A DNA stretch of 64,000 nucleotides from Betaproteobacteria bacterium HGW-Betaproteobacteria-1 (GCA_002842435.1 PHCX01000004.1:180209-244208), one strand, 5' to 3'. Positions 5,847 to 18,129 are shown, numbered from the stretch's first letter. The notes: generated by a model from the sequence alone, not told the origin. Program-made: numbers and translations.

Positions 5847-7991
5847 TCAGAACTTGCCGTAGTAACCTTCCTTCATTGCATCGTACAAGTTGGCAGCGGA
5901 ATGGATCTCGCCGTCATACTCGATCTCTTCGTTGCCCTTGGCTTCGATGACGGTGCCGTCTTCCAGCGTGAACTTGTAGGTGGTGTTTTCCAGATCCTTC
6001 TCGGTCACCAGCACGCCCTGGAAGGCTTCCGGGTTGAAGCGGAAAGTGGTGCAGCCCTTCAGGCCCTTGTCGTAGGCGTAGAGATAGATGTTCTTGAAGT
6101 CCTCGAAATCGTAGTCGGTCGGCACGTTGATGGTCTTGGAGATGGAGCTGTCGATCCATTTCTGCGCGGCCGCTTGAATGTCGACATGCGCCTTGGCCTG
6201 GATCGTCGAGGAGTCGAGGAAATAGTCCGGCAACTGCTCTTCCGGCTTGTCGGAGAACGGCATGGCGCTTGAGTTGACCAACTCGCGGTAGGCCAGAAGT
6301 TCGTAGGAGAAGACGTCGACTTTCTCTTTGGATTTCTTGCCTTCGCGAATCACGTTGCGTGCATAGTGGTGGGCGAACGAGGGTTCGATACCGTTGCTGG
6401 CGTTGTTGGCCAGTGACAGTGAAATGGTGCCGGTCGGTGCGATCGAACTATGGTGCGTGAAGCGCACGCCGTTCTTGGCGATCTCCTTGCGCAGGGCTTC
6501 CGGAAACTGCTGCATGTACTTGCTGTACAGGCCCATCAGCACCTTGCCCTTGACCTTGGCACCGAGCTTGATGCCGTCGGCCTTCATTTCAGGACGCTTG
6601 GCCAGCATGTCGGCGGTGATGACGAACTCTTCATCCATGATCGGTGCCGGGCCTTTTTCCTTGGCCAGTTCAACGCCGACTTCCCAACCTACTTCGGCCA
6701 TGACCTTGGTCACTTCTTCGGTGAATCTCAATGAATCGGCTTCGCCGTATTTCATCTTGAGCATGGTCAGTGTGGAGCCGAGGCCGAGGTAACCCATGCC
6801 GTGGCGGCGCTTGCGGGCGATTTCGTCACGCTGTTGTTGCAGCGGCAGGCCGTTGATCTCGACCACGTTGTCCAGCATGCGGGTGAAGGTGGCGACTACT
6901 TCGCGGTATTCGTCCCAGTCGAAATACGCCTTGTCGGTGAAAGGCTGGCGCACGAACTTGGTCAGGTTGACCGAGCCCAGCAGGCAGGCACCATAAGGTG
7001 GCAGTGGCTGTTCGCCGCAGGGGTTGGTGGCGCGGATGTTCTCGCAGAACCAGTTGTTGTTCATCTCGTTGACGCGGTCGATGAGGATAAAGCCCGGTTC
7101 GGCGAAGTCGTAGGTGGAGGACATGATGACATCCCACAGACGCTGCGCCTTGATGGTCTTGTAGACGCGGCAGGCGACCTTGCCGTCGGATTCGCGCGTC
7201 AGGTATTTGTTCTTCACCGGCCATTCGCGCCAGACCACCTTGCTGTCGTCTTTCAGGTCGAGCTTGTCGGCTTCGGCTTCCTTGGCAGTGACCGGGAATG
7301 CCAGTTTCCATTCGGCATCGGCTTTCACCGCTTCCATGAATTCCTTGGTGATCAGGCAGGACAGGTTGAACTGGCGCAGGCGGCCGGCTTCGCGCTTGGC
7401 CTTGATGAAGTCGGTGACATCCGGATGGGAGATGTCGAAAGTCGCCATCTGTGCGCCGCGACGGCCACCGGCGGAGGAGACGGTAAAGCACATCTTGTCG
7501 TAGATATCCATGAAGGACAACGGGCCGCTGGTGTAGGCACCGGCGCCGGCGACAAATGCGCCCTTCGGACGCAGGGTGGAGAATTCGTAACCGATACCGC
7601 AACCGGCTTTCAGGGTCAGGCCGGCTTCATGCACTTTTTCCAGGATGCCGTCCATGCTGTCTTCAACCGTGCCGGATACGGTGCAGTTGATGGTGGAAGT
7701 GGCAGGCTTGTGTTCCAGCGCGCCGGCATTGGAGGTGATGCGGCCGGCAGGGATGGCGCCACGGCGCAATGCCCAGACGAACTTCTCGTACCACAATTCA
7801 CGTTTTTCTTCGGTGTCTTCGGCATCGGCCAGGGCACGCGCCACGCGACGATAGGTGTCGTCCATGTTCGCGTCGAGACATTCACCCTGCTTGGTCTTCA
7901 GGCGGTATTTTTTGTCCCAGATATCGAGGGAGACAGATTGCATGGGAACTTCTTTTTCGGTCTCTTGAGACATTTTCACGGCCTTGAGCAT
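5847..7991 (-). CDS. nrdJ: Class II (adenosylcobalamin-dependent) ribonucleotide reductase, NrdJa-type large subunit
   Basis: PAGRI, TINC, NPCGEQPL, GACLLGS, GYLGLG, IAPTGTIS, SISKTINVP; ends YYGKF with no C-terminal Cys pair; SD AGGAAGGA upstream. Confidence 0.93.
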   Translation of the reverse strand: MLKAVKMSQETEKEVPMQSVSLDIWDKKYRLKTKQGECLDANMDDTYRRVARALADAEDTEEKRELWYEKFVWALRRGAIPAGRITSNAGALEHKPATSTINCTVSGTVEDSMDGILEKVHEAGLTLKAGCGIGYEFSTLRPKGAFVAGAGAYTSGPLSFMDIYDKMCFTVSSAGGRRGAQMATFDISHPDVTDFIKAKREAGRLRQFNLSCLITKEFMEAVKADAEWKLAFPVTAKEAEADKLDLKDDSKVVWREWPVKNKYLTRESDGKVACRVYKTIKAQRLWDVIMSSTYDFAEPGFILIDRVNEMNNNWFCENIRATNPCGEQPLPPYGACLLGSVNLTKFVRQPFTDKAYFDWDEYREVVATFTRMLDNVVEINGLPLQQQRDEIARKRRHGMGYLGLGSTLTMLKMKYGEADSLRFTEEVTKVMAEVGWEVGVELAKEKGPAPIMDEEFVITADMLAKRPEMKADGIKLGAKVKGKVLMGLYSKYMQQFPEALRKEIAKNGVRFTHHSSIAPTGTISLSLANNASNGIEPSFAHHYARNVIREGKKSKEKVDVFSYELLAYRELVNSSAMPFSDKPEEQLPDYFLDSSTIQAKAHVDIQAAAQKWIDSSISKTINVPTDYDFEDFKNIYLYAYDKGLKGCTTFRFNPEAFQGVLVTEKDLENTTYKFTLEDGTVIEAKGNEEIEYDGEIHSAANLYDAMKEGYYGKF

Positions 7992-9750: not shown

Positions 9751-12700
9751 ATGGTGTCTATGATGTTTGTCGGATTGATCGCGGTGCTCGTTGTGTCCCT
9801 GTTAATACTGGAAACAAAGGATGGCGGACAAAAATTGTCCTTGAATCCCGCAGGTCTGTGGACTTGGCTGTTCAGTGGGAACTGGCCGGCAAAAATGGGT
9901 GCTGGATTGCTGATTATCAGCACGGGCGCGCTTTTAAGATATCTGATGTTGAATGTCGAGTTACCGGCAAACTACAAACTGCTGTTTGGTATCTTCATGG
10001 CGCTGGTGTTCAGTGTCTTTTCACTGGCGTTTAAATCCAATCCAAAATTTCGGGCACTGCATCTGGCGTTGGGGGGTGCTGCGCTGGGTGTAGCTTACCT
10101 GACAGCATACAGTGCTTACGGATTCTTTCATTTCATTAACGACTTTCAGGCGTTAGGTTTGTTGTTTCTGGTTGCACTTGGCGCCACCGCTTTTGCATTG
10201 ACAAGTAACGCGCTCTCTATCGCTGTTTTGGCAATGATAGGGGCGTATATCGCTCCCGCGTTTGCCTTGGAGTCGCCTGGCATCATGCCGGTGTACGGCT
10301 ATTATGTTGGCGCAAGCCTGCTCTCGTTATTAATGGTCTGGCAAAGGGGCTGGCGTCCGCTCATTCATCTGAGTTTCCTGTTTACCTTGGCGGGAGGTTT
10401 GTTTTTTGGGTGGACGCAGGGCTTTTACGCCGAGGCTTATTATGTACAGATGCAGCCTATGCTACTTGCACTGGTTGCCATCCACTTGGCAATGCCGATA
10501 CTTGAGTCCGGATACAAGCATGAGTCTGCGGCAGACTGGCTGTATCGTTTCGATCTCAGTTACTTCTTACTTTTACCTTTGGTTGCTCTTGTCCTGACGC
10601 TGACAATTGCTCCTAATATAACCCCCGAGGGTTCTTTGGGCTTGTTTGCTCTTTCCCTGTTATGGTTTTGCGCGGGCGGCTTGCAGTATGTCAGCAAGGG
10701 AGAAGGGGCATATCGCTACGTTTCGATCGCTGTAGTGCTGATGGTCATCGCTGGCCTGCTGCACTTGCATGGAGTTTCCTACTTGTTGGTGGCAAGTGTG
10801 ACGGCGGCACTATTGCTGGCGCTGGGACCAAAATGCGGGGTATCAGAGCGTTATGATGCTTTGTTGATGATGGTCGCATATGCAGCTGCAGCTTGTTATT
10901 TGCTGCAATCGTTATTCGAGCCAGTGGCAGTTGAGCCTTTCAGGAATGCTGAATTCCTGCAGCAGATCATTTTCGTGCTTGCTTTTGGTATCGCCGGTTT
11001 TTGTTTGATGCGGCGCGAGCATAGTCAGGGACCGGTGATGCTGACGATTGCTGTGGGATGGTTCTTGTTCTCTATCCTGCGGGAACTGGTGCGCTTGGAC
11101 TTTGATTACTTTGCACTGGCTTTTCATGTCATGCTGCTGGCTGCGGCTTTTGCCTACGCTCTGTGGCTCAGAAATAGACAACCTGACACTTTATGGGTGC
11201 TGTCACTGGTTGGCGCGCTGTTTGTTTCTGCATTTCTGGCGAGTGCCGATCTGTCGCTTACCGGTGTACTGATTTTGATGGTAGCTGGTCAGGCTGTATT
11301 TTCATATGTGGCATATATGGCAAGCCGGCAAGGGGAAGACGGGCAATCAATAGCAGGACTGACCCGTAGCATGCTGCCGATAGTCATTTATCCATGGGCA
11401 GTTGCGCTGAGTGATTTGCTGTCTGCCACCAGTCAGCCTGTCGTGATGACCGTATTGGTCATCAGCGCTTTGTTGGCCTCATTTCAGGCGCAGCTTAGTC
11501 CGCCTGGTACACGCAAATGGCCCAATCTCCTGTCCCCCGTCGGATTTGTCATTTTTGGCCTCTGGTTCTTTTTCCAGACGCTATTCAATATCGAGCGCGA
11601 AGTATGGGCGATCTTCTATGAGATTTTCGCGCTGGCTTATCTGCTACTGACAGTTAGTTTCATGGCGGAATCGAAGCAAAGGGATATGCGTTATTTTGGC
11701 GCTGTGGCGGTATTCGCGGTAGCCAGTTTCGTATCGGCCATGTTGTTGCGGGTAATAGGACCAAGTGGCCCCCTCACCGTGATGGCATATAACGATATGC
11801 TACTACCGGCAATGATATCGCTGCTGCTTGCTGTAGCTGGTGGGTTGACTGCATGGTGGGCAACTCGAATCATTTCGCGGGGGATGTGGTCTGTTGGCGC
11901 GGGCTTGCTGGTTTTCGCCGCAGTGAAACTGGTGCTGTTTGATTTTGGCTCACTTGGGCAACTCGGCAATATTCTGGCCATGATGGCAGCTGGCGGCGTC
12001 TTTCTGCTGGTGGCCTGGCTTGCCCCTATTCCGCCTAAAGCATCGGTTGAAGAGCGGCAAAAACGGTCAACGGCAGAAACTGGATCTGCGTCACCGGTGG
12101 TCGGTGCACCTGCCTCCAGTGCGCAGGCTGAGAAAAATACAGCTGGCATGGCAGCTAAACCGGCCCATAGCACTGTAAAGTCTTCTATATCCCAACATCA
12201 GGATGAGGCTACTTCTGGTCGAGGCTGGATATGGATCGTGGTCGCGTTGATTGCAATTGCGGTATACACCGAAGCAGGCAAGTCCAAAGTTAGTCGCAAT
12301 AAGGTTTTTTCTTCCTACAATTCACAGAGCTGTGAGTTCAAGCATTTGTATCTGCCTTCTGATATGAAGATTGTTGCAACCGGCGCCTTTAAAGGCAGGG
12401 GCGTGGCGGTGCCGGTTGACAGGCGGGCTGAGTATTCATCCCAGTTTATCGTCACGGTCAATCAGCAGGACTCGCCTGTGGTGCTGATGCTGGGGGCGCA
12501 TGAGTCGGCGTTGTGGAATATAAGCCTGGCTGAAAATACTAAAATACTTGCGGTAGTATTGACCGGGTTTCACAAACAGACCATTGATGGTTTGAGCGAG
12601 TCAGTGCCTGTAATCAACAGCAGCGGGGATGCAAGAGAGATTTGTGGATATTTTCATCTGCCGGGCAAGTTTGATGCGGTAAACCAGATTTCACGAAAGC

Positions 12701-13230
12701 TTTTTAATCGCGTTCCCGATATGTTGATTACGGCGAATGATGGAGTGGTGCAACTTGGAACAGGGGTATCGCAAATAAATGAATCCCTATCAGGGCAGGC
12801 GTCTATTAACAACGCCAAAGATCCAGCTTATTTGGCTGATACGCATGCCACGGAGGAACCAGCTACTGTCATTAAGGTGCCAGGCCAGCAACTGGACGAA
12901 GCCAAGCAGAGTGTCGAGGTACTTACAGGCATTAGCGCAGTGGAAGAGGCAGTCCGAAGAGGTGAACTGAGAAGGGCAACCATGTCTGACGTGAAGGCAT
13001 GGGAGAGATCGCCTGGTGGTCGTCAGAGAATGGATCCACGGGCAGCTAGTTTATACAGAACCTATTTTGCCCAAAGAGAATTTGTTTTCCCGGCTGAGCT
13101 ATATGGAGCAAACAGTATCGTGCTTTTTGTCGGTAGAGGTGTGCCCTACCCCAAAGGGGATCCCGGACACTCTGAAATTTATGACTTCAATGACTATACT
13201 TGCAGAGGTTTGGGTTGTGATAGTCATTGA
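9751..13230 (+). CDS. Large multi-pass membrane protein (DUF2339-like) with a C-terminal soluble domain of unknown family
   Basis: NWPAKMGAGLLIISTGALLRY start, many hydrophobic helices ending AVKLVLFDFGSLGQLGNI; then a low-complexity linker, one TM and about 320 soluble residues. Confidence 0.7.
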   Translation: MVSMMFVGLIAVLVVSLLILETKDGGQKLSLNPAGLWTWLFSGNWPAKMGAGLLIISTGALLRYLMLNVELPANYKLLFGIFMALVFSVFSLAFKSNPKFRALHLALGGAALGVAYLTAYSAYGFFHFINDFQALGLLFLVALGATAFALTSNALSIAVLAMIGAYIAPAFALESPGIMPVYGYYVGASLLSLLMVWQRGWRPLIHLSFLFTLAGGLFFGWTQGFYAEAYYVQMQPMLLALVAIHLAMPILESGYKHESAADWLYRFDLSYFLLLPLVALVLTLTIAPNITPEGSLGLFALSLLWFCAGGLQYVSKGEGAYRYVSIAVVLMVIAGLLHLHGVSYLLVASVTAALLLALGPKCGVSERYDALLMMVAYAAAACYLLQSLFEPVAVEPFRNAEFLQQIIFVLAFGIAGFCLMRREHSQGPVMLTIAVGWFLFSILRELVRLDFDYFALAFHVMLLAAAFAYALWLRNRQPDTLWVLSLVGALFVSAFLASADLSLTGVLILMVAGQAVFSYVAYMASRQGEDGQSIAGLTRSMLPIVIYPWAVALSDLLSATSQPVVMTVLVISALLASFQAQLSPPGTRKWPNLLSPVGFVIFGLWFFFQTLFNIEREVWAIFYEIFALAYLLLTVSFMAESKQRDMRYFGAVAVFAVASFVSAMLLRVIGPSGPLTVMAYNDMLLPAMISLLLAVAGGLTAWWATRIISRGMWSVGAGLLVFAAVKLVLFDFGSLGQLGNILAMMAAGGVFLLVAWLAPIPPKASVEERQKRSTAETGSASPVVGAPASSAQAEKNTAGMAAKPAHSTVKSSISQHQDEATSGRGWIWIVVALIAIAVYTEAGKSKVSRNKVFSSYNSQSCEFKHLYLPSDMKIVATGAFKGRGVAVPVDRRAEYSSQFIVTVNQQDSPVVLMLGAHESALWNISLAENTKILAVVLTGFHKQTIDGLSESVPVINSSGDAREICGYFHLPGKFDAVNQISRKLFNRVPDMLITANDGVVQLGTGVSQINESLSGQASINNAKDPAYLADTHATEEPATVIKVPGQQLDEAKQSVEVLTGISAVEEAVRRGELRRATMSDVKAWERSPGGRQRMDPRAASLYRTYFAQREFVFPAELYGANSIVLFVGRGVPYPKGDPGHSEIYDFNDYTCRGLGCDSH

Positions 13231-13333: not shown

Positions 13334-15373
13334 CTATCTGGATTCAGGAAATAATTTCTCGACCTGATCGGCTGGAATTGCGGGACTAAACAGATGGCCT
13401 TGTACCTTTGTGCAATGATGCGCTTTAAGGAAATCGAGTTGTTGCTCGGTTTCGACACCCTCGGCAACGACAGCCAGCTCCAGGCTTTTTGCCAATGCAA
13501 AGATTGATTCGATAATCGCGCAATCCACTTTATCCTGCGGCAGTCCTTGTACAAAACTTTGATCAATTTTCAGCGCTTTAACCGGGAATTGTTTCAGGTA
13601 ATTCATGGATGAATGGCCGGTGCCAAAGTCATCAATCGATATGCTACTGCCAATTTTCTTAAGGGCGTTGAGAATGCCCACAGTTTTATCTACATCATCC
13701 ATCAGTATGGATTCGGTCAGTTCAAAATTTACGGTGCTGGCATCAAGCATGTATTGGTTTATTGAAAGACGAATCTTGTTGACCAGCTGTTTGTCATGGA
13801 ACTGGCGACCGGAGATGTTAATGTTGATGAAAAGATTGGGGTTGTAGCGTTCTTGCCAGATCTTGATCTGGGCCAGCGCGCTGTTGATTACCCAGTCCCC
13901 GATCGGTGTAATCAGGCCGGTGCTTTCAGCGATGGGGATGAAAACGGTCGGGTTGATCATTCCCATGCTGGGGTGGTGCCATCGCAAAAGTGCTTCAACG
14001 CCTACAGTCAAACCTGTTTCCACATTGATGATGGGTTGGTAGTACAGCTCAAGCTCATTATTTTTCAGGGCATTTTGCAGGCCGTTAATCAATGATTGCT
14101 GGTGATATTTGGCCGCTTCGATTTCCTTGGAATAAAACTTGTGGGTATTCTTGCCGTCGGATTTTGCCCAGTACATGGCTACATCTGCATTTTTGATCAG
14201 ACTGGATTTGGAATAATTGTTGTCGTATTCAATCACGCCGATACTGACGCCAATAAAAATTTCGTGATTATCGATATTGAATTTTTGAGATAAGGCATGC
14301 GTGATTCTTTGACAAATCTTTTCGACATCCTCATGAGGTTTCCTGCCCACCAATGTGATGGCAAATTCATCGCCGCCGATCCTGAATATATTGTCTTTAT
14401 GCTTGAGGACTGAGCGCAGCCTTTTGCCGCAATCCCTGAGCAGTATGTCGCCAGCCCCATGGCCGATGGTGTCATTGACGGTTTTGAAATTATCCAGATC
14501 CAGCAGCAATAGATGAAAACGCCCTTCATCCTGCGAGCTGGCTCTCATGAGTCGGTCAATATGTTCTGCGAAAGCATGCCGGTTAGGCAGGTCGGTTTGA
14601 TGATCAATATAAGCCAGCCGGTCCAGCTTATGCTGGAACTCTTTTCTGTGTTCCAGTTCCTCATGGAGCTTGGCATCCCTGAACGTAATGTTTTCCAGCA
14701 TGTTATTGATACCTGCTGAAAGTGCGCCGATTTCATCCTGAGTCTGAATACTGGATCGATGTGTATAGTCCTGTTTGCTGGTGATGTTACCAACCAGTTT
14801 TTCGAGGTAGCTGATAGGTTCGGTTATATATCGATTCAGGTATCTGGAGATGATACTTGCCAGTGTGATGGCTAAAAAGACGGCCATTAACAGTACGATA
14901 GAAAAAATCTTTATTCGGTCAGTGATCTTGTTCAGGCTTGCATCCAGGTGAATCGTGCCGACTTGCACCTCATTGACCAGGATTTTTCTGTTCAGGTGAA
15001 TCATTCCGTTGAGCGGCAAAAGATTTTTTGATTTCTTTGCGTTTCTTTCCATGTAAGCCGGCGACTGGTAGTCGGCAAACAGTGAGCCGTCATTCAGCAG
15101 GATATAAGCATGCTCGATGCTTGTGTTCAGGCTGAGTGAATTGAGTGTTTCGCTGGCCGAACGTTGATCCTCGAATGCAATGGCGGCACCGATGTTGTTT
15201 TCTATTACTGAAAGATGCGACTCAAGATCATCGACTAAATCATGTTTGAAACTGAGATGCTGGGCGGTAATGGCCAGGGCAAATACCAACAGCATTGCTG
15301 CGCCAGTCACCAGCAGGTGCATAAGATACAGTTTTTGCCGTATTGCCAGCTTGTCAAAATAGAATTTCAGCAT
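13334..15373 (-). CDS. YfiN-like CHASE8-HAMP-GGDEF-EAL diguanylate cyclase/phosphodiesterase
   Basis: Two TMs around AAIAFEDQRSASETLNSL, HAMP (DEIGAL), DLDNFK...GGDEF, EALLRW, DDFGTG, KIDQSF, AEGVE; start at MLKFYF (15373). Confidence 0.9.
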   Translation of the reverse strand: MLKFYFDKLAIRQKLYLMHLLVTGAAMLLVFALAITAQHLSFKHDLVDDLESHLSVIENNIGAAIAFEDQRSASETLNSLSLNTSIEHAYILLNDGSLFADYQSPAYMERNAKKSKNLLPLNGMIHLNRKILVNEVQVGTIHLDASLNKITDRIKIFSIVLLMAVFLAITLASIISRYLNRYITEPISYLEKLVGNITSKQDYTHRSSIQTQDEIGALSAGINNMLENITFRDAKLHEELEHRKEFQHKLDRLAYIDHQTDLPNRHAFAEHIDRLMRASSQDEGRFHLLLLDLDNFKTVNDTIGHGAGDILLRDCGKRLRSVLKHKDNIFRIGGDEFAITLVGRKPHEDVEKICQRITHALSQKFNIDNHEIFIGVSIGVIEYDNNYSKSSLIKNADVAMYWAKSDGKNTHKFYSKEIEAAKYHQQSLINGLQNALKNNELELYYQPIINVETGLTVGVEALLRWHHPSMGMINPTVFIPIAESTGLITPIGDWVINSALAQIKIWQERYNPNLFININISGRQFHDKQLVNKIRLSINQYMLDASTVNFELTESILMDDVDKTVGILNALKKIGSSISIDDFGTGHSSMNYLKQFPVKALKIDQSFVQGLPQDKVDCAIIESIFALAKSLELAVVAEGVETEQQLDFLKAHHCTKVQGHLFSPAIPADQVEKLFPESR

Positions 15374-15380
15374 GATTGGT

Positions 15381-15896
15381 TCAGTAAACCTCGGCCGCAA
15401 GCCGCAGTAGCCTTGAGCTTAATGTCAGGTTGGAGTCCCTGGCGGTTTCATTATTGATGGTGAAATTGAACCGGTTGTTAATTAACAGGATATTGATAAT
15501 GCCGGTGTTGGTTGTATTTTCAGTACTGTTTACGATGGTCAGGATCGAGTTGTTCTGCAGAGTGTCTGCAAGTCTTTTGTTTCTGATTTTCTTCGCTTCC
15601 AGATATAGAACCTGGCAATTGTTGATGGCATTGATATTGCGAATTACAACCAGACTGGTTTGTTTGCCGCTTATCTTTTTGGTTTTCAACAGTTGCTCAT
15701 TGATGTTTTCCCTGTCCTCTTCAAATACACAAATGTTAAAGGTCTCGCCTGCAATGAGTGGCCAGGTTGTGAAAACTGCGAAATTATAGATAAGCGCTGT
15801 TTTCATATCACGTTCACTGATCTGCTCGGACCTGCCATTGACCGGCAATGCGAATAGCAGTGACAACCAGAATAGATAAATGAGTTTTCTCATCAC
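15381..15896 (-). CDS. YfiR-family (DUF4154-like) periplasmic protein
   Basis: Signal peptide, MKTALIYNFAVFTTWP, FNFTINNETARDSNLTLSSRLLRLA. Confidence 0.85.
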   Translation of the reverse strand: MMRKLIYLFWLSLLFALPVNGRSEQISERDMKTALIYNFAVFTTWPLIAGETFNICVFEEDRENINEQLLKTKKISGKQTSLVVIRNINAINNCQVLYLEAKKIRNKRLADTLQNNSILTIVNSTENTTNTGIINILLINNRFNFTINNETARDSNLTLSSRLLRLAAEVY

Positions 15897-17911
15897 TATT
15901 TGAAGTCGTAGCTCAATTGGAACCAGACATTGCTTTTATCCTGCACAAAGCGATCCGGCAGGTAAAAGGTGGGTGCCGGGACCGAATAATGCCGGTTAAA
16001 TAAATTCTTGACGCTGGCGCTAATGGTTGTGTTTTTAATGAGGGTAGTGCTGTGGAGTGTCAGGTTTGTTAACGTGTATCCATCCAGACGGTCTCTTGCC
16101 TCAGTCAAGCGGCTGCCGACATATTGCACTTCAATGCCGGCATGTAGGCGATTGCCAAACATGCCATGGGCAATGTTGAGTTTGGCCAGGTGTTTGGGGG
16201 AGTTTGCCAGCCACTTGTCATTTTGGTCTGTGGCTAGTTGCCAGGCGTAGCTTGCTTTCAGGCGGGAGGATTTGCTCCATTGCTTGTCGTATTCAAAGTC
16301 TATGCCCCGGGTTTTGCTTCGGTCGACATTGGTAAAACGCTCCGCACCCGCTGGTGACATGATGGTTTCCGACTGGATAAGATCTTTTGTTGTGTAATGG
16401 AACAGTGAGCTCATCCATTTGCTGGAGCTGTCTGGTCGGTATTCAAATACCAGTTCCGAGGCGTATACCATCTCCTTGTTCAAATTGGAGTTTGGAATGA
16501 TGGTTGAACCATCTCCGTAATATTTTTCGTAGGCATTGGCCTTCCTGAAGGCGGTTGCATACGAAGCCTTGATATCCAATGAGGCAGTGGGTGAATAGAT
16601 GACAGCAAGCCTGGGGCTCAGGTTTTTTGCATGATGTCCGCCATGGTCCGCCCGTACACCGGCATTCAGCAACCAGTGGTCGTTCAACCGGTATTCATCT
16701 TGTATATAGGCACTTGCCATGTAGGCGCTGTGCTCTATGTCGTCTGCGGGCAGGTAAAAATCCTGTTGGTAGTCGTTGCGATACTCAAGCCCATAGACAA
16801 GGCGATGCTGGTCTAGTCCCGAATAAACAAATTTGGCTTCCGTGCCCCACCATCGCCCCGTATTCTTTTCGCGATAATAACCGTCGCTGTAAATGGCTTC
16901 TGCGGAATAGTTATATTGACCATAGTAGATTTTCAGCGCGCGTTTCAGCTGGTCGCTGATATCGTCTTCATGCCGCAGGGTGACGTAACCGTTCGCGTCC
17001 TGCATATACGATGGGTGTGTATTGAAGTTGGCGTTATATGCAGCTGCCGGATCATCTTTCTTTCTTGTGACATAAGCACTTTCCAGCGACCACGCCTCAA
17101 AGTGTCCTTTGAAGAACAAGCGACGGTTCTTCTCGTCATCCAGGTTTCTGGCGACACCAAAGTTGGTCGATGGGCTGTCGAAGTCCCTGAAATAAAAATT
17201 TTGCCCCTGGCTGCGAAGTGTCGAAGCGGACAAGAGGATATCCGCCCCATTATCAAATTGGGTGCCGTAAGTTATTCGTTCTTTATAGGTTTGATGGCTG
17301 GCAGCATCGACGGCAAGTTGTGCGCCGTCGAAATCACTGCCTTTTTTTGTCACGATATTGATGATGCCGTAGAAGGCGCCATTTCCGTGTGACACCGAAC
17401 CTGGGCCGGAGACGTATTCAACCCGTTCTATCAGTTCCGTATCCAGGATGCCGTCATTACTCAAATAGGAGGCATTGTATAAATTGTCATTGGCCTGATG
17501 CCCATCAATTAGCAACATGACCCTGCCGGGGTAGTCGCCGGGCCTGCCGAAGCCCCTGCCACTCATGTAGGTGTAAACGTGGTCACTGATAGTATTTAAA
17601 CCCCGCATGCTGCTGATGATCTCAGCCAGGGTGCGATAGCCATAGGATTGGATATCCTTGGCGGTAACGATACTGACGGCAGATGGTGAGTCGCTGATCT
17701 GCTTGGCAATTCTGGATGCAGTGACGACTTCTTTCGAAAGCAGCTCTTCCAGCGGGGTGTCGGTCAGATATTCGCTGTTGTCAGCCTCAGCGAGGACGAG
17801 AGAACTATATAGACAGAAACAAATACCTATAAGACTGGCAGGAACGGCAAGGTATGCGCGATTGCACAGTAACTGGTGTTTGAGCAAGCCTGCATTGAAA
17901 TTTGATTGCAT
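15896..17911 (-). CDS. TonB-dependent outer-membrane receptor
   Basis: Signal peptide, LEELLSKEVVTAS TonB-box region, plug motifs (RVMLLIDG, IERVEYVSGPGSVSHG), amphipathic beta strands, C-terminal LSYDFK. Confidence 0.93.
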   Translation of the reverse strand: MQSNFNAGLLKHQLLCNRAYLAVPASLIGICFCLYSSLVLAEADNSEYLTDTPLEELLSKEVVTASRIAKQISDSPSAVSIVTAKDIQSYGYRTLAEIISSMRGLNTISDHVYTYMSGRGFGRPGDYPGRVMLLIDGHQANDNLYNASYLSNDGILDTELIERVEYVSGPGSVSHGNGAFYGIINIVTKKGSDFDGAQLAVDAASHQTYKERITYGTQFDNGADILLSASTLRSQGQNFYFRDFDSPSTNFGVARNLDDEKNRRLFFKGHFEAWSLESAYVTRKKDDPAAAYNANFNTHPSYMQDANGYVTLRHEDDISDQLKRALKIYYGQYNYSAEAIYSDGYYREKNTGRWWGTEAKFVYSGLDQHRLVYGLEYRNDYQQDFYLPADDIEHSAYMASAYIQDEYRLNDHWLLNAGVRADHGGHHAKNLSPRLAVIYSPTASLDIKASYATAFRKANAYEKYYGDGSTIIPNSNLNKEMVYASELVFEYRPDSSSKWMSSLFHYTTKDLIQSETIMSPAGAERFTNVDRSKTRGIDFEYDKQWSKSSRLKASYAWQLATDQNDKWLANSPKHLAKLNIAHGMFGNRLHAGIEVQYVGSRLTEARDRLDGYTLTNLTLHSTTLIKNTTISASVKNLFNRHYSVPAPTFYLPDRFVQDKSNVWFQLSYDFK

Positions 17912-18129
17912 CTTCGACCTGTTTGCCGGCTGGTATCGTTTGGAGCTTCTCCAGCTTGCCGGTCATTTACCAGAATTTTGATGTCTTTGATTATGTTATT
18001 GGCATCCCTGGATTCAAGCATATCAAAATTTGTTGAATTGATATTGAGAAATATCGTTTGTGCTGATTTAAATCAAGAAAGTCGCTGTTGCCCGGCCTGA
18101 AATCTGAAGGTTCAGGTGTGTGAATGGGG

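Follow-up and report, generated by a model that had tools for sequence, protein, structure and literature searches.

We analysed a 64,000-nucleotide stretch of DNA from Betaproteobacteria bacterium HGW-Betaproteobacteria-1 (GCA_002842435.1, PHCX01000004.1:180209-244208), referred to here as the window. Open reading frame (ORF) calls and translations revealed three co-oriented, tightly packed genes on its minus strand, coding for a TonB-dependent receptor, a YfiR-like protein and a sensor enzyme of cyclic di-GMP (c-di-GMP) metabolism. The receptor gene (15896-17911, minus strand) codes for a 671-residue protein matching the Pfam families Plug (54 bits) and TonB_dep_Rec_b-barrel (140 bits), and its translation begins with a predicted signal peptide of 41 residues (17789-17911, minus strand) that ends in VLA directly before EAD. 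The second gene (15381-15896, minus strand) codes for a periplasmic YfiR-like protein of 170-171 residues with a signal peptide and a DUF4154 domain (PF13689, 108.9 bits). The third gene (13334-15400, minus strand) codes for a 688-residue inner-membrane sensor enzyme in which Pfam places, all on the same strand, a periplasmic CHASE8 domain at residues 53-152 (14945-15244; PF17152, 51.4 bits), a HAMP domain (14687-14839; PF00672, 31.1 bits), a GGDEF domain (14147-14614; PF00990, 139 bits) and an EAL domain (13382-14080; PF00563, 238.7 bits). Two hydrophobic segments, read in the translation, flank the CHASE8 domain, and all domain calls of the three proteins lie above the Pfam cut-offs.

At the first junction, TAGTGATG, the TAG stop codon of the receptor gene shares its G with the GTG start codon of the YfiR-like gene, giving a 1-nt overlap; an alternative ATG start lies 3 nt past the GTG. 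The YfiR-like gene ends with TGA, followed by 7 nt (ACCAATC) and by an ATG at 15373, which is the likely start of the sensor gene, the longest ORF of which opens at a TTG at 15400. A natural read-through fusion of neighbouring cassette proteins was ruled out, since their reading frames differ. A first-pass annotation of this DNA had given the three genes the same identities and described a 1-bp overlap and a 7-bp gap; the ORFs, translations and Pfam matches bear out the former, and direct reading of the junctions the latter.

This cassette is real, recurs across many phyla and is far commoner than the YfiBNR system. Scanning one genome per species by pattern and tblastn gave 333 relatives of the YfiR-like protein; the best 80 loci were fetched and annotated with iterated profiles built from the window's proteins. 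These loci span the Beta-, Gamma-, Delta- and Epsilonproteobacteria, Acidobacteriota, Verrucomicrobiota, Nitrospirota, Elusimicrobiota, Armatimonadota, Gemmatimonadota and Poribacteria. A TonB-dependent receptor gene lies directly upstream, on the same strand, of 69 of their 82 YfiR-like genes, and for 52 of the 69 a CHASE8 sensor gene also follows directly downstream; many of the exceptions are contig ends or other gene orders. The minimal gap between receptor and YfiR-like genes has a median of 4 nt (33/69 pairs overlap) and that between YfiR-like and sensor genes a median of 5 nt. The sensor output at the classifiable loci is a histidine kinase in 33 cases and a GGDEF domain, alone or joined to EAL, in 26. 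Of the 20 YfiR-like genes assessable in the 41 nearest genomes, 18 abut a receptor scoring at least 483 bits on the window-built receptor profile, and receptors scoring 358 bits or less never abut a YfiR-like gene.

An even sample of 201 genomes of the phylum, each at least 90% complete, gave a count from the side of DUF4154, which is present in 56 of them (28%). A receptor gene is directly upstream of 31 of the 69 strong DUF4154 genes, adjacent in another orientation for 2 and within 6 kb for 17, the last often in the order YfiR-sensor-receptor; receptor linkage, all within 6 kb, thus amounts to 50/69 (about 72%). No receptor was detected near the other 19, some of which may be misses since only six receptor candidates were scored per genome. 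YfiB scored above its cut-off in only two genomes, each time in a canonical yfiR-yfiN-yfiB locus, which accounts for 2/69 DUF4154 genes (3%). In this sample, the receptor-linked form is the main habitat of DUF4154 and YfiBNR is a rarity. Finding the same gene order in dozens of unrelated genomes indicates that the arrangement is not due to chance, and the three neighbourhood statistics (69/82, 18/20 and 50/69) show the trio to be conserved as a unit, on which the first-pass annotation had made its proposal depend. That annotation had also supposed that a TonB-dependent receptor here replaces YfiB. The arrangement is not a rare rewiring of YfiBNR: with 50 receptor-linked against 2 YfiB-linked DUF4154 genes, this wording probably has the history backwards.

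Departures from the common gene order were also seen. Family f44 has the order YfiR-sensor-receptor rather than receptor-YfiR-sensor. Seven Azonexus/Dechloromonas loci (L049, L055, L056, L071, L075, L076 and L078) carry receptor/YfiR-like pairs without a directly downstream CHASE8 sensor gene, and in two of these, L075 and L078, a large kinase gene lies about 3 kb further on. The ORFs that follow the YfiR-like gene in Azonexus/Dechloromonas have no or unrelated Pfam matches and are probably spurious frames.

The cassette receptors constitute a dedicated subfamily marked by their N-terminus. Alignment of the full-length cassette receptors yielded, at the mature N-terminus, the consensus D-L-t-x-h-(P/S)-h-E-(E/Q)-L-h-x-h-(E)-V-x-(S/T)-A-S-K, the second half of which is the TonB box; the first half is extra and reads LTDTPLEELL in the window. 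The family-specific motif and the TonB box occupy residues 49-67 of the window's receptor (17711-17767, minus strand; LTDTPLEELLSKEVVTASR), which thus bears the cassette motif D-L-t-x-h-P/S-h-E-E/Q-L (LTDTPLEELLSKEVVTAS) immediately ahead of the TonB box. In an alignment of 61 receptor sequences, L57 shows no variation, and all other invariant columns there are core plug or barrel residues. The N-terminal region is common to locus L001, and the motif is found in the kinase-linked receptors of the fetched loci as well. Its first half was not found in the other 12 TonB-dependent receptors of the genome (1/13 has it). In the 201-genome sample, 52 of the 60 receptors with the motif region lie within 6 kb of a DUF4154 gene compared to 0 of 26 generic TonB-dependent receptors (P = 2.5e-15, Fisher's test).

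The AlphaFold2 (AF2) model of the receptor consists of a plug and a barrel (predicted local distance difference test score, pLDDT, 89; predicted template-modelling score 0.90). Confidence drops to a pLDDT below 50 in the first 32 mature residues, among which LEELLS forms a short helix; this low score suggests that the N-terminal motif is a flexible periplasmic linear motif. Fold searches returned generic transporters with similar scores (BtuB, PqqU and PfeA, BtuB and PqqU being the nearest), which gives no clue to the ligand. In a search of NCBIfam release 20, the receptor scored 128.7 bits on NF053590 (TOL_0244 TonB-dependent receptor; cut-off 645), a match that ranked third by score and was the only cassette-specific one.

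The YfiR-like protein scored 78.4 bits on NF053591 (TOL_0243 YfiR-like; cut-off 125) and 38.6 bits on the YfiR model NF053586 (cut-off 85). The best 15 PDB fold matches of its AF2 model (pLDDT 86.9) are nonetheless all Pseudomonas aeruginosa YfiR (TM-score 0.65-0.76, target-normalised; probability 1.0), and the profile of the YfiR-like family picks YfiR chains (E = 4e-5). Homology shows the protein to be the predicted periplasmic partner of the sensor's CHASE8 domain, as YfiR is for YfiN. The cysteines equivalent to C71 and C110 of P. aeruginosa YfiR (PaYfiR) are kept as C56 and C94, invariant or near-invariant in 81 sequences; in the alignment to PaYfiR, the equivalents of C145 and C152, the disulfide of which was reported to be essential for PaYfiR folding (PMC4655355), are absent from the window's protein. 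The most conserved columns fall in helix alpha1 (KAAYxYNFAxFTxWP) and in the C-terminal beta7-alpha3-alpha4 stretch (F..N...A...L..SS.LL.LA). They map onto the alpha1/beta7-alpha3-alpha4 surface through which PaYfiR binds YfiB and, according to mutation data, YfiN (PMC4655355; PMC4887326). In the pocket that receives F57 and M59 of YfiB, the residue remains hydrophobic or small at three positions (I169 to A, V176 to L and L181 to L) and differs at two (L166 to N and P178 to S), the serine being conserved in the family. The partner surface thus appears to be kept and tuned to another partner. In PaYfiR, the same YfiB-binding pocket binds vitamin B6 and L-Trp weakly (Kd 35-77 mM; PMC4887326).

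DUF4154 also occurs in a natural fusion. At locus L105 (3042-5636, minus strand; genome G196), an 864-residue protein joins DUF4154 (residues 50-189) to HisKA-HATPase-REC; it adjoins a REC-HD-GYP gene, and no receptor gene lies beside it. The same genome holds seven DUF4154 matches, one of them below full strength, and six cassette-type receptors.

The translation of the sensor gene contains intact GGDEF motifs (RIGGDEF and DLDNFKTVND...GHGAGD) and the complete EAL catalytic set (EALLR, N, FELTE, DDFGTG, KID, EGVE and QG), and its I-site position reads KHKD, a degenerate K-x-x-D. The motif content would make the enzyme bifunctional, able both to make and to break c-di-GMP. Its N-terminal part (residues 20-238) scored 143.7 bits on NF053592 (cut-off 194), and the protein scored 233.9 bits on the DgcN/YfiN model NF007423 (cut-off 325). 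The first-pass annotation had likewise read intact GGDEF and EAL motifs and a KxxD I-site, in agreement with our motif reading, and had described the EAL domain as extra. This last point needs qualifying: EAL motifs are present in at least 15 of the 25 GGDEF-type sensors of the fetched loci, with several others ending at contig edges, and are therefore common in this branch. GGDEF is kept in all GGDEF-type cassette sensors. Loss of the RxxD I-site is confined to the window's own clade of eight (the window and loci L001-L007), save for locus L027 (GDGD); the variants in that clade are KHKD, SKKD, RKNA, NAED and NGDD, and every EAL motif is retained there despite the loss. A lost I-site with a kept EAL domain fits a c-di-GMP level limited by the enzyme's own phosphodiesterase domain rather than by product inhibition, and enzymes of this clade may work in that manner.

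The tree of YfiR-like proteins largely sets the c-di-GMP outputs apart from the kinase outputs. A branch with 99% support parts a half rich in histidine kinases (27 kinases, 1 diguanylate cyclase) from a half rich in diguanylate cyclases (25 cyclases, 6 kinases), and about two switches between kinase and cyclase suffice to explain the tree. The window's protein belongs to the cyclase-rich half, in a clade of eight receptor-linked Methylophilaceae members (100/99 support) with GGDEF-EAL outputs. PaYfiR and two YfiB-linked YfiR proteins form a separate long-branch clade (100/100); its union with the Azonexus clade has only 92/93 support, making its placement among the receptor-linked clades insecure. 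Rooting the YfiB-linked YfiR proteins inside the receptor-linked tree was set aside in view of the long branch and the 92/93 support, and no evolutionary direction is drawn.

The window's genome (2.5 Mb, 99.9% complete) has this one DUF4154 gene together with, according to the window-built profiles, 13 TonB-dependent receptors, 24 GGDEF ORFs and 18 EAL ORFs. The absence of yfiB stated in the first-pass annotation extends from the cassette to the whole genome, where the YfiB model NF053585 gave best scores of 94.9-96.7 bits for a cut-off of 128. None of the nine OmpA-domain genes is near the cassette, and three small OmpA-like lipoproteins considered as YfiB candidates fit Pal, YiaD and LptF better, all below the cut-off. 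The same annotation had the relay operating without an extracytoplasmic function (ECF) sigma factor. This too stood: the receptor has no STN domain, Pfam matching only its plug and barrel, and no anti-sigma or ECF sigma factor gene adjoins it, for which reasons we rejected a FecA-type transducer. Five TonB_C genes lie elsewhere in the genome.

The cassette resembles YfiBNR (TpbB) of P. aeruginosa, DgcN-YfiR-YfiB of E. coli and HmsCDE of Yersinia in having a periplasmic DUF4154 protein of YfiR fold, an inner-membrane enzyme with a PAS-like CHASE8 domain followed by HAMP and GGDEF, and, in the outer membrane, a third component whose gene belongs to the same operon; the C71/C110 cysteines and the C-terminal surface for partner binding are kept as well. 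It differs in that the outer-membrane partner is a 22-strand TonB-dependent receptor instead of the OmpA-like lipoprotein YfiB, in its gene order (receptor-YfiR-sensor instead of yfiR-yfiN-yfiB), in the intact EAL domain and degenerate I-site of its enzyme, and in the missing C145-C152 pair and two changed pocket residues of its YfiR-like protein. Moreover, its proteins fall below the NCBIfam YfiR and DgcN cut-offs and outside the canonical YfiR clade. The window's trio also resembles the NCBIfam cassette described by NF053590, NF053591 and NF053592, the last of which is titled 'sensor histidine kinase, YfiR-like protein-associated'. Both have the same three parts in the same gene order, and NF053591 and NF053592 are the best family-specific matches for the YfiR-like protein and the sensor N-terminus, respectively. 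However, all three scores are below threshold (128.7/645, 78.4/125 and 143.7/194), and the output in the window is GGDEF-EAL rather than a histidine kinase. The existence of three linked models means that the kinase-output form is already catalogued; the models give names for it, with no function or mechanism. A full-text literature search returned no paper on the receptor/YfiR-like/CHASE8 arrangement with either a kinase or a c-di-GMP output, in line with the statement of the first-pass annotation that it knew of no mechanistic study. The window's cassette is thus a c-di-GMP-output variant of a widespread, catalogued envelope sensor and, for this genome alone, an ordinary find: one accessory copy.

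The genomic context strongly supports the three genes forming one envelope-spanning signalling unit whose products act together. It also points to the dedicated receptor as the supplier of the input, and lends good support to a signal passing from the receptor through the YfiR-like protein to the enzyme, so that the relay suggested by the first-pass annotation is plausible. As to how the signal would pass, the most likely reading, which we favour tentatively, is that the receptor, on binding its ligand, captures the YfiR-like protein with its N-terminal motif. Binding of a ligand at the surface would free the flexible N-terminal segment of the receptor (LTDTPLEELL, before the TonB box) into the periplasm, where it would capture the YfiR-like protein on its conserved alpha1/beta7-alpha3-alpha4 surface. 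The YfiR-like protein would then leave CHASE8, changing the HAMP output and shifting the balance between GGDEF and EAL activities, and with it the c-di-GMP level. Such a relay would need neither an ECF sigma factor nor a transcription step. We favour capture because it explains why a dedicated, motif-bearing receptor subfamily exists and because YfiB offers a parallel: its N-terminal linker, unwound, places a hydrophobic residue in YfiR. Like FecA-FecR-FecI, FpvA and HasR, the receptor is proposed to report ligand occupancy through an N-terminal element preceding the TonB box. Unlike those systems, it has only a motif of about 12 residues in place of an STN domain of approximately 80 residues, it is not accompanied by an anti-sigma or ECF sigma factor gene, a soluble periplasmic protein stands between receptor and sensor, and the output is a second messenger rather than transcription.

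Several points weigh against capture. The contact between the receptor and the YfiR-like protein is itself putative, and the motif may be no more than an extension of the TonB box peculiar to some lineages. Glu27 of the YfiR-like protein (15813-15815 in the window, ATG numbering), just before alpha1, speaks for capture as a candidate for the contact: among 13 proteins that lack an upstream TonB-dependent receptor, 6 have another residue there, versus 4 among the 68 that have such a receptor (P = 8e-4, uncorrected), and a same-genus protein whose receptor is deleted (L003) is one of those changed. This signal varies with the alignment, and correcting for about 24 columns leaves it barely significant. 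Also against capture, the L003 lineage retains an intact YfiR-like/sensor pair, which can therefore persist without a receptor. Finally, given the binding-protein-like fold of YfiR and its weak binding of small molecules, the YfiR-like protein could itself be the ligand sensor. This last thought leads to a possible alternative, close behind capture and fitting the data almost as well, in which the receptor only transports a small molecule that the YfiR-like protein, with its half-binding-protein fold, binds in the periplasm, its ligand-bound or ligand-free form switching the enzyme between synthesis and hydrolysis with no contact to the receptor. A conserved TonB box is what a real transporter would have, DUF4154 in the fusion at L105 serves a hybrid kinase as its periplasmic input domain in a locus that has no receptor in the vicinity, and the pair that outlived its receptor in L003 fits as well. 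Transport followed by sensing resembles PfeA-PfeS/PfeR of P. aeruginosa, in which enterobactin is imported by PfeA and sensed by PfeS. There too, a TonB-dependent receptor is encoded beside a sensor responding to its substrate; that system has no known YfiR-like intermediary, and the kinase acting as its sensor regulates the gene for the receptor. In NspS-MbaA of Vibrio cholerae and ScrB-ScrC of V. parahaemolyticus, a periplasmic binding protein sets the direction in which a GGDEF-EAL enzyme works. They share with the cassette, as proposed, a soluble periplasmic partner that docks on the periplasmic domain of a membrane-bound GGDEF-EAL enzyme and decides between synthesis and hydrolysis of c-di-GMP, and they differ from it in using a full substrate-binding protein, unrelated to DUF4154, and a non-CHASE8 domain and in having no known dedicated outer-membrane receptor encoded with them. 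What transport alone fails to explain is why a periplasmic motif should be as conserved as the core plug across phyla, where ligands should differ, and why this motif is restricted to DUF4154-linked receptors. Furthermore, the binding of vitamin B6 and L-Trp by PaYfiR in the YfiB pocket, which speaks for it, has millimolar affinities (PMC4887326).

The receptor might instead touch the sensor itself. In cell-surface signalling by TonB-dependent transducers, the receptor contacts an inner-membrane protein directly, and by analogy with FecA-FecR the N-terminal motif could contact CHASE8, leaving the YfiR-like protein as a modulator or redox checkpoint rather than a messenger; retention of the redox-variable C71/C110 pair as C56/C94 would suit such a role. 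Yet only about 20 residues, with no STN domain, precede the TonB box, which is short for spanning the periplasm, and the YfiR-like gene invariably lies between the other two and is often translationally coupled, suggesting a central and not an accessory function. We regard direct contact as improbable. Lower still we place mere co-location, that is, an ordinary nutrient transporter whose gene merely stands in one operon with those of a YfiR/YfiN-type sensor of envelope stress or redox state. The generic, BtuB/PqqU-like fold of the receptor is in its favour, but the near-exclusive two-way association across phyla and the dedicated receptor subfamily make it very unlikely, and where the output is c-di-GMP, the sensor has no transcription factor by which to control the transporter.

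Capture by the motif would have wider consequences. The cassettes may represent a third general route of TonB-dependent envelope signalling, beside the FecA type and import followed by sensing, in which the motif of a ligand-loaded receptor captures a periplasmic adaptor and so frees a CHASE8 kinase, cyclase or cyclase/phosphodiesterase; YfiBNR would then be a rare derived offshoot with a lipoprotein in the receptor's role. We put this forward as a conjecture more apt to fail than to hold. The enzymes of c-di-GMP metabolism are very numerous and their input is mostly unknown, and here an input device, a dedicated outer-membrane receptor, is written into the operon. Should the relay operate in the proposed way, an extracellular ligand would set a second messenger without entering the cytoplasm and without a transcription factor, and YfiBNR, a clinically studied biofilm switch, would be reframed as the minority form of a much larger family. 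The motif offers a precise and cheap handle for testing, as the peptide EYLTDTPLEELLSKEVVTASR in binding assays and through point mutants.

Within the genus, the cassette is accessory, an insert of low GC content that occupies a fixed site. Its GC content is 46.9% compared to a genome mean of 54.9%, placing it in the lowest 1.5% of 4.6-kb windows, and the GC content at third codon positions (GC3) is 0.54-0.58 versus 0.70-0.77 in the flanking genes. Two genomes of the same genus (G006 and G010) carry it at the same site, in the order kdtA / sensor-YfiR-receptor / isochorismatase-OEP. A third (G007, locus L003) has there a YfiR-like/sensor pair, 51% identical and with both genes intact, from which the receptor has been deleted (L003:4600-6000), leaving a remnant of its 28 C-terminal residues at 5909-5992 (tblastn E = 0.001); the two ORFs in its place (196 and 138 residues) have no Pfam match. 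In three further genomes of the genus, 98-99% complete, the site is empty, with kdtA about 600 bp from OEP. Occupancy of the site in some genomes and its emptiness in these three mark the cassette as accessory.

The neighbours of the cassette in the window are an isochorismatase-family gene, an OEP gene and a DUF2339 gene. The 218-nt region 5' of the receptor gene (17912-18129, minus strand) is near-identical in locus L001 and contains a sigma-70-like site, TTGAAT-16-CATAAT, at 18017-17990; this match is no better than those in shuffled sequence, and the same holds for the counts from a promoter and terminator scan. Fur regulation of the receptor was rejected, as the best upstream match to a Fur box (12/19) is unconvincing and so gives no evidence of a role for iron. 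Beside the sigma-70-like hexamers, at about 18019-18058 (minus strand), lie nested inverted repeats (GATAT-TTCTCA-ATATC and ATATCAA-N11-TTGATAT) that could be a regulator site. On the other side of the cassette, between kdtA and the sensor gene and convergent on the latter, the DUF2339 gene (9751-13230, plus strand), whose GC3 of 0.53 is low as in the cassette, codes for a 1159-residue membrane protein. It is present at this site in the window's genome only and not in G006, G010 or G007, and for this reason looks like a separate insertion.

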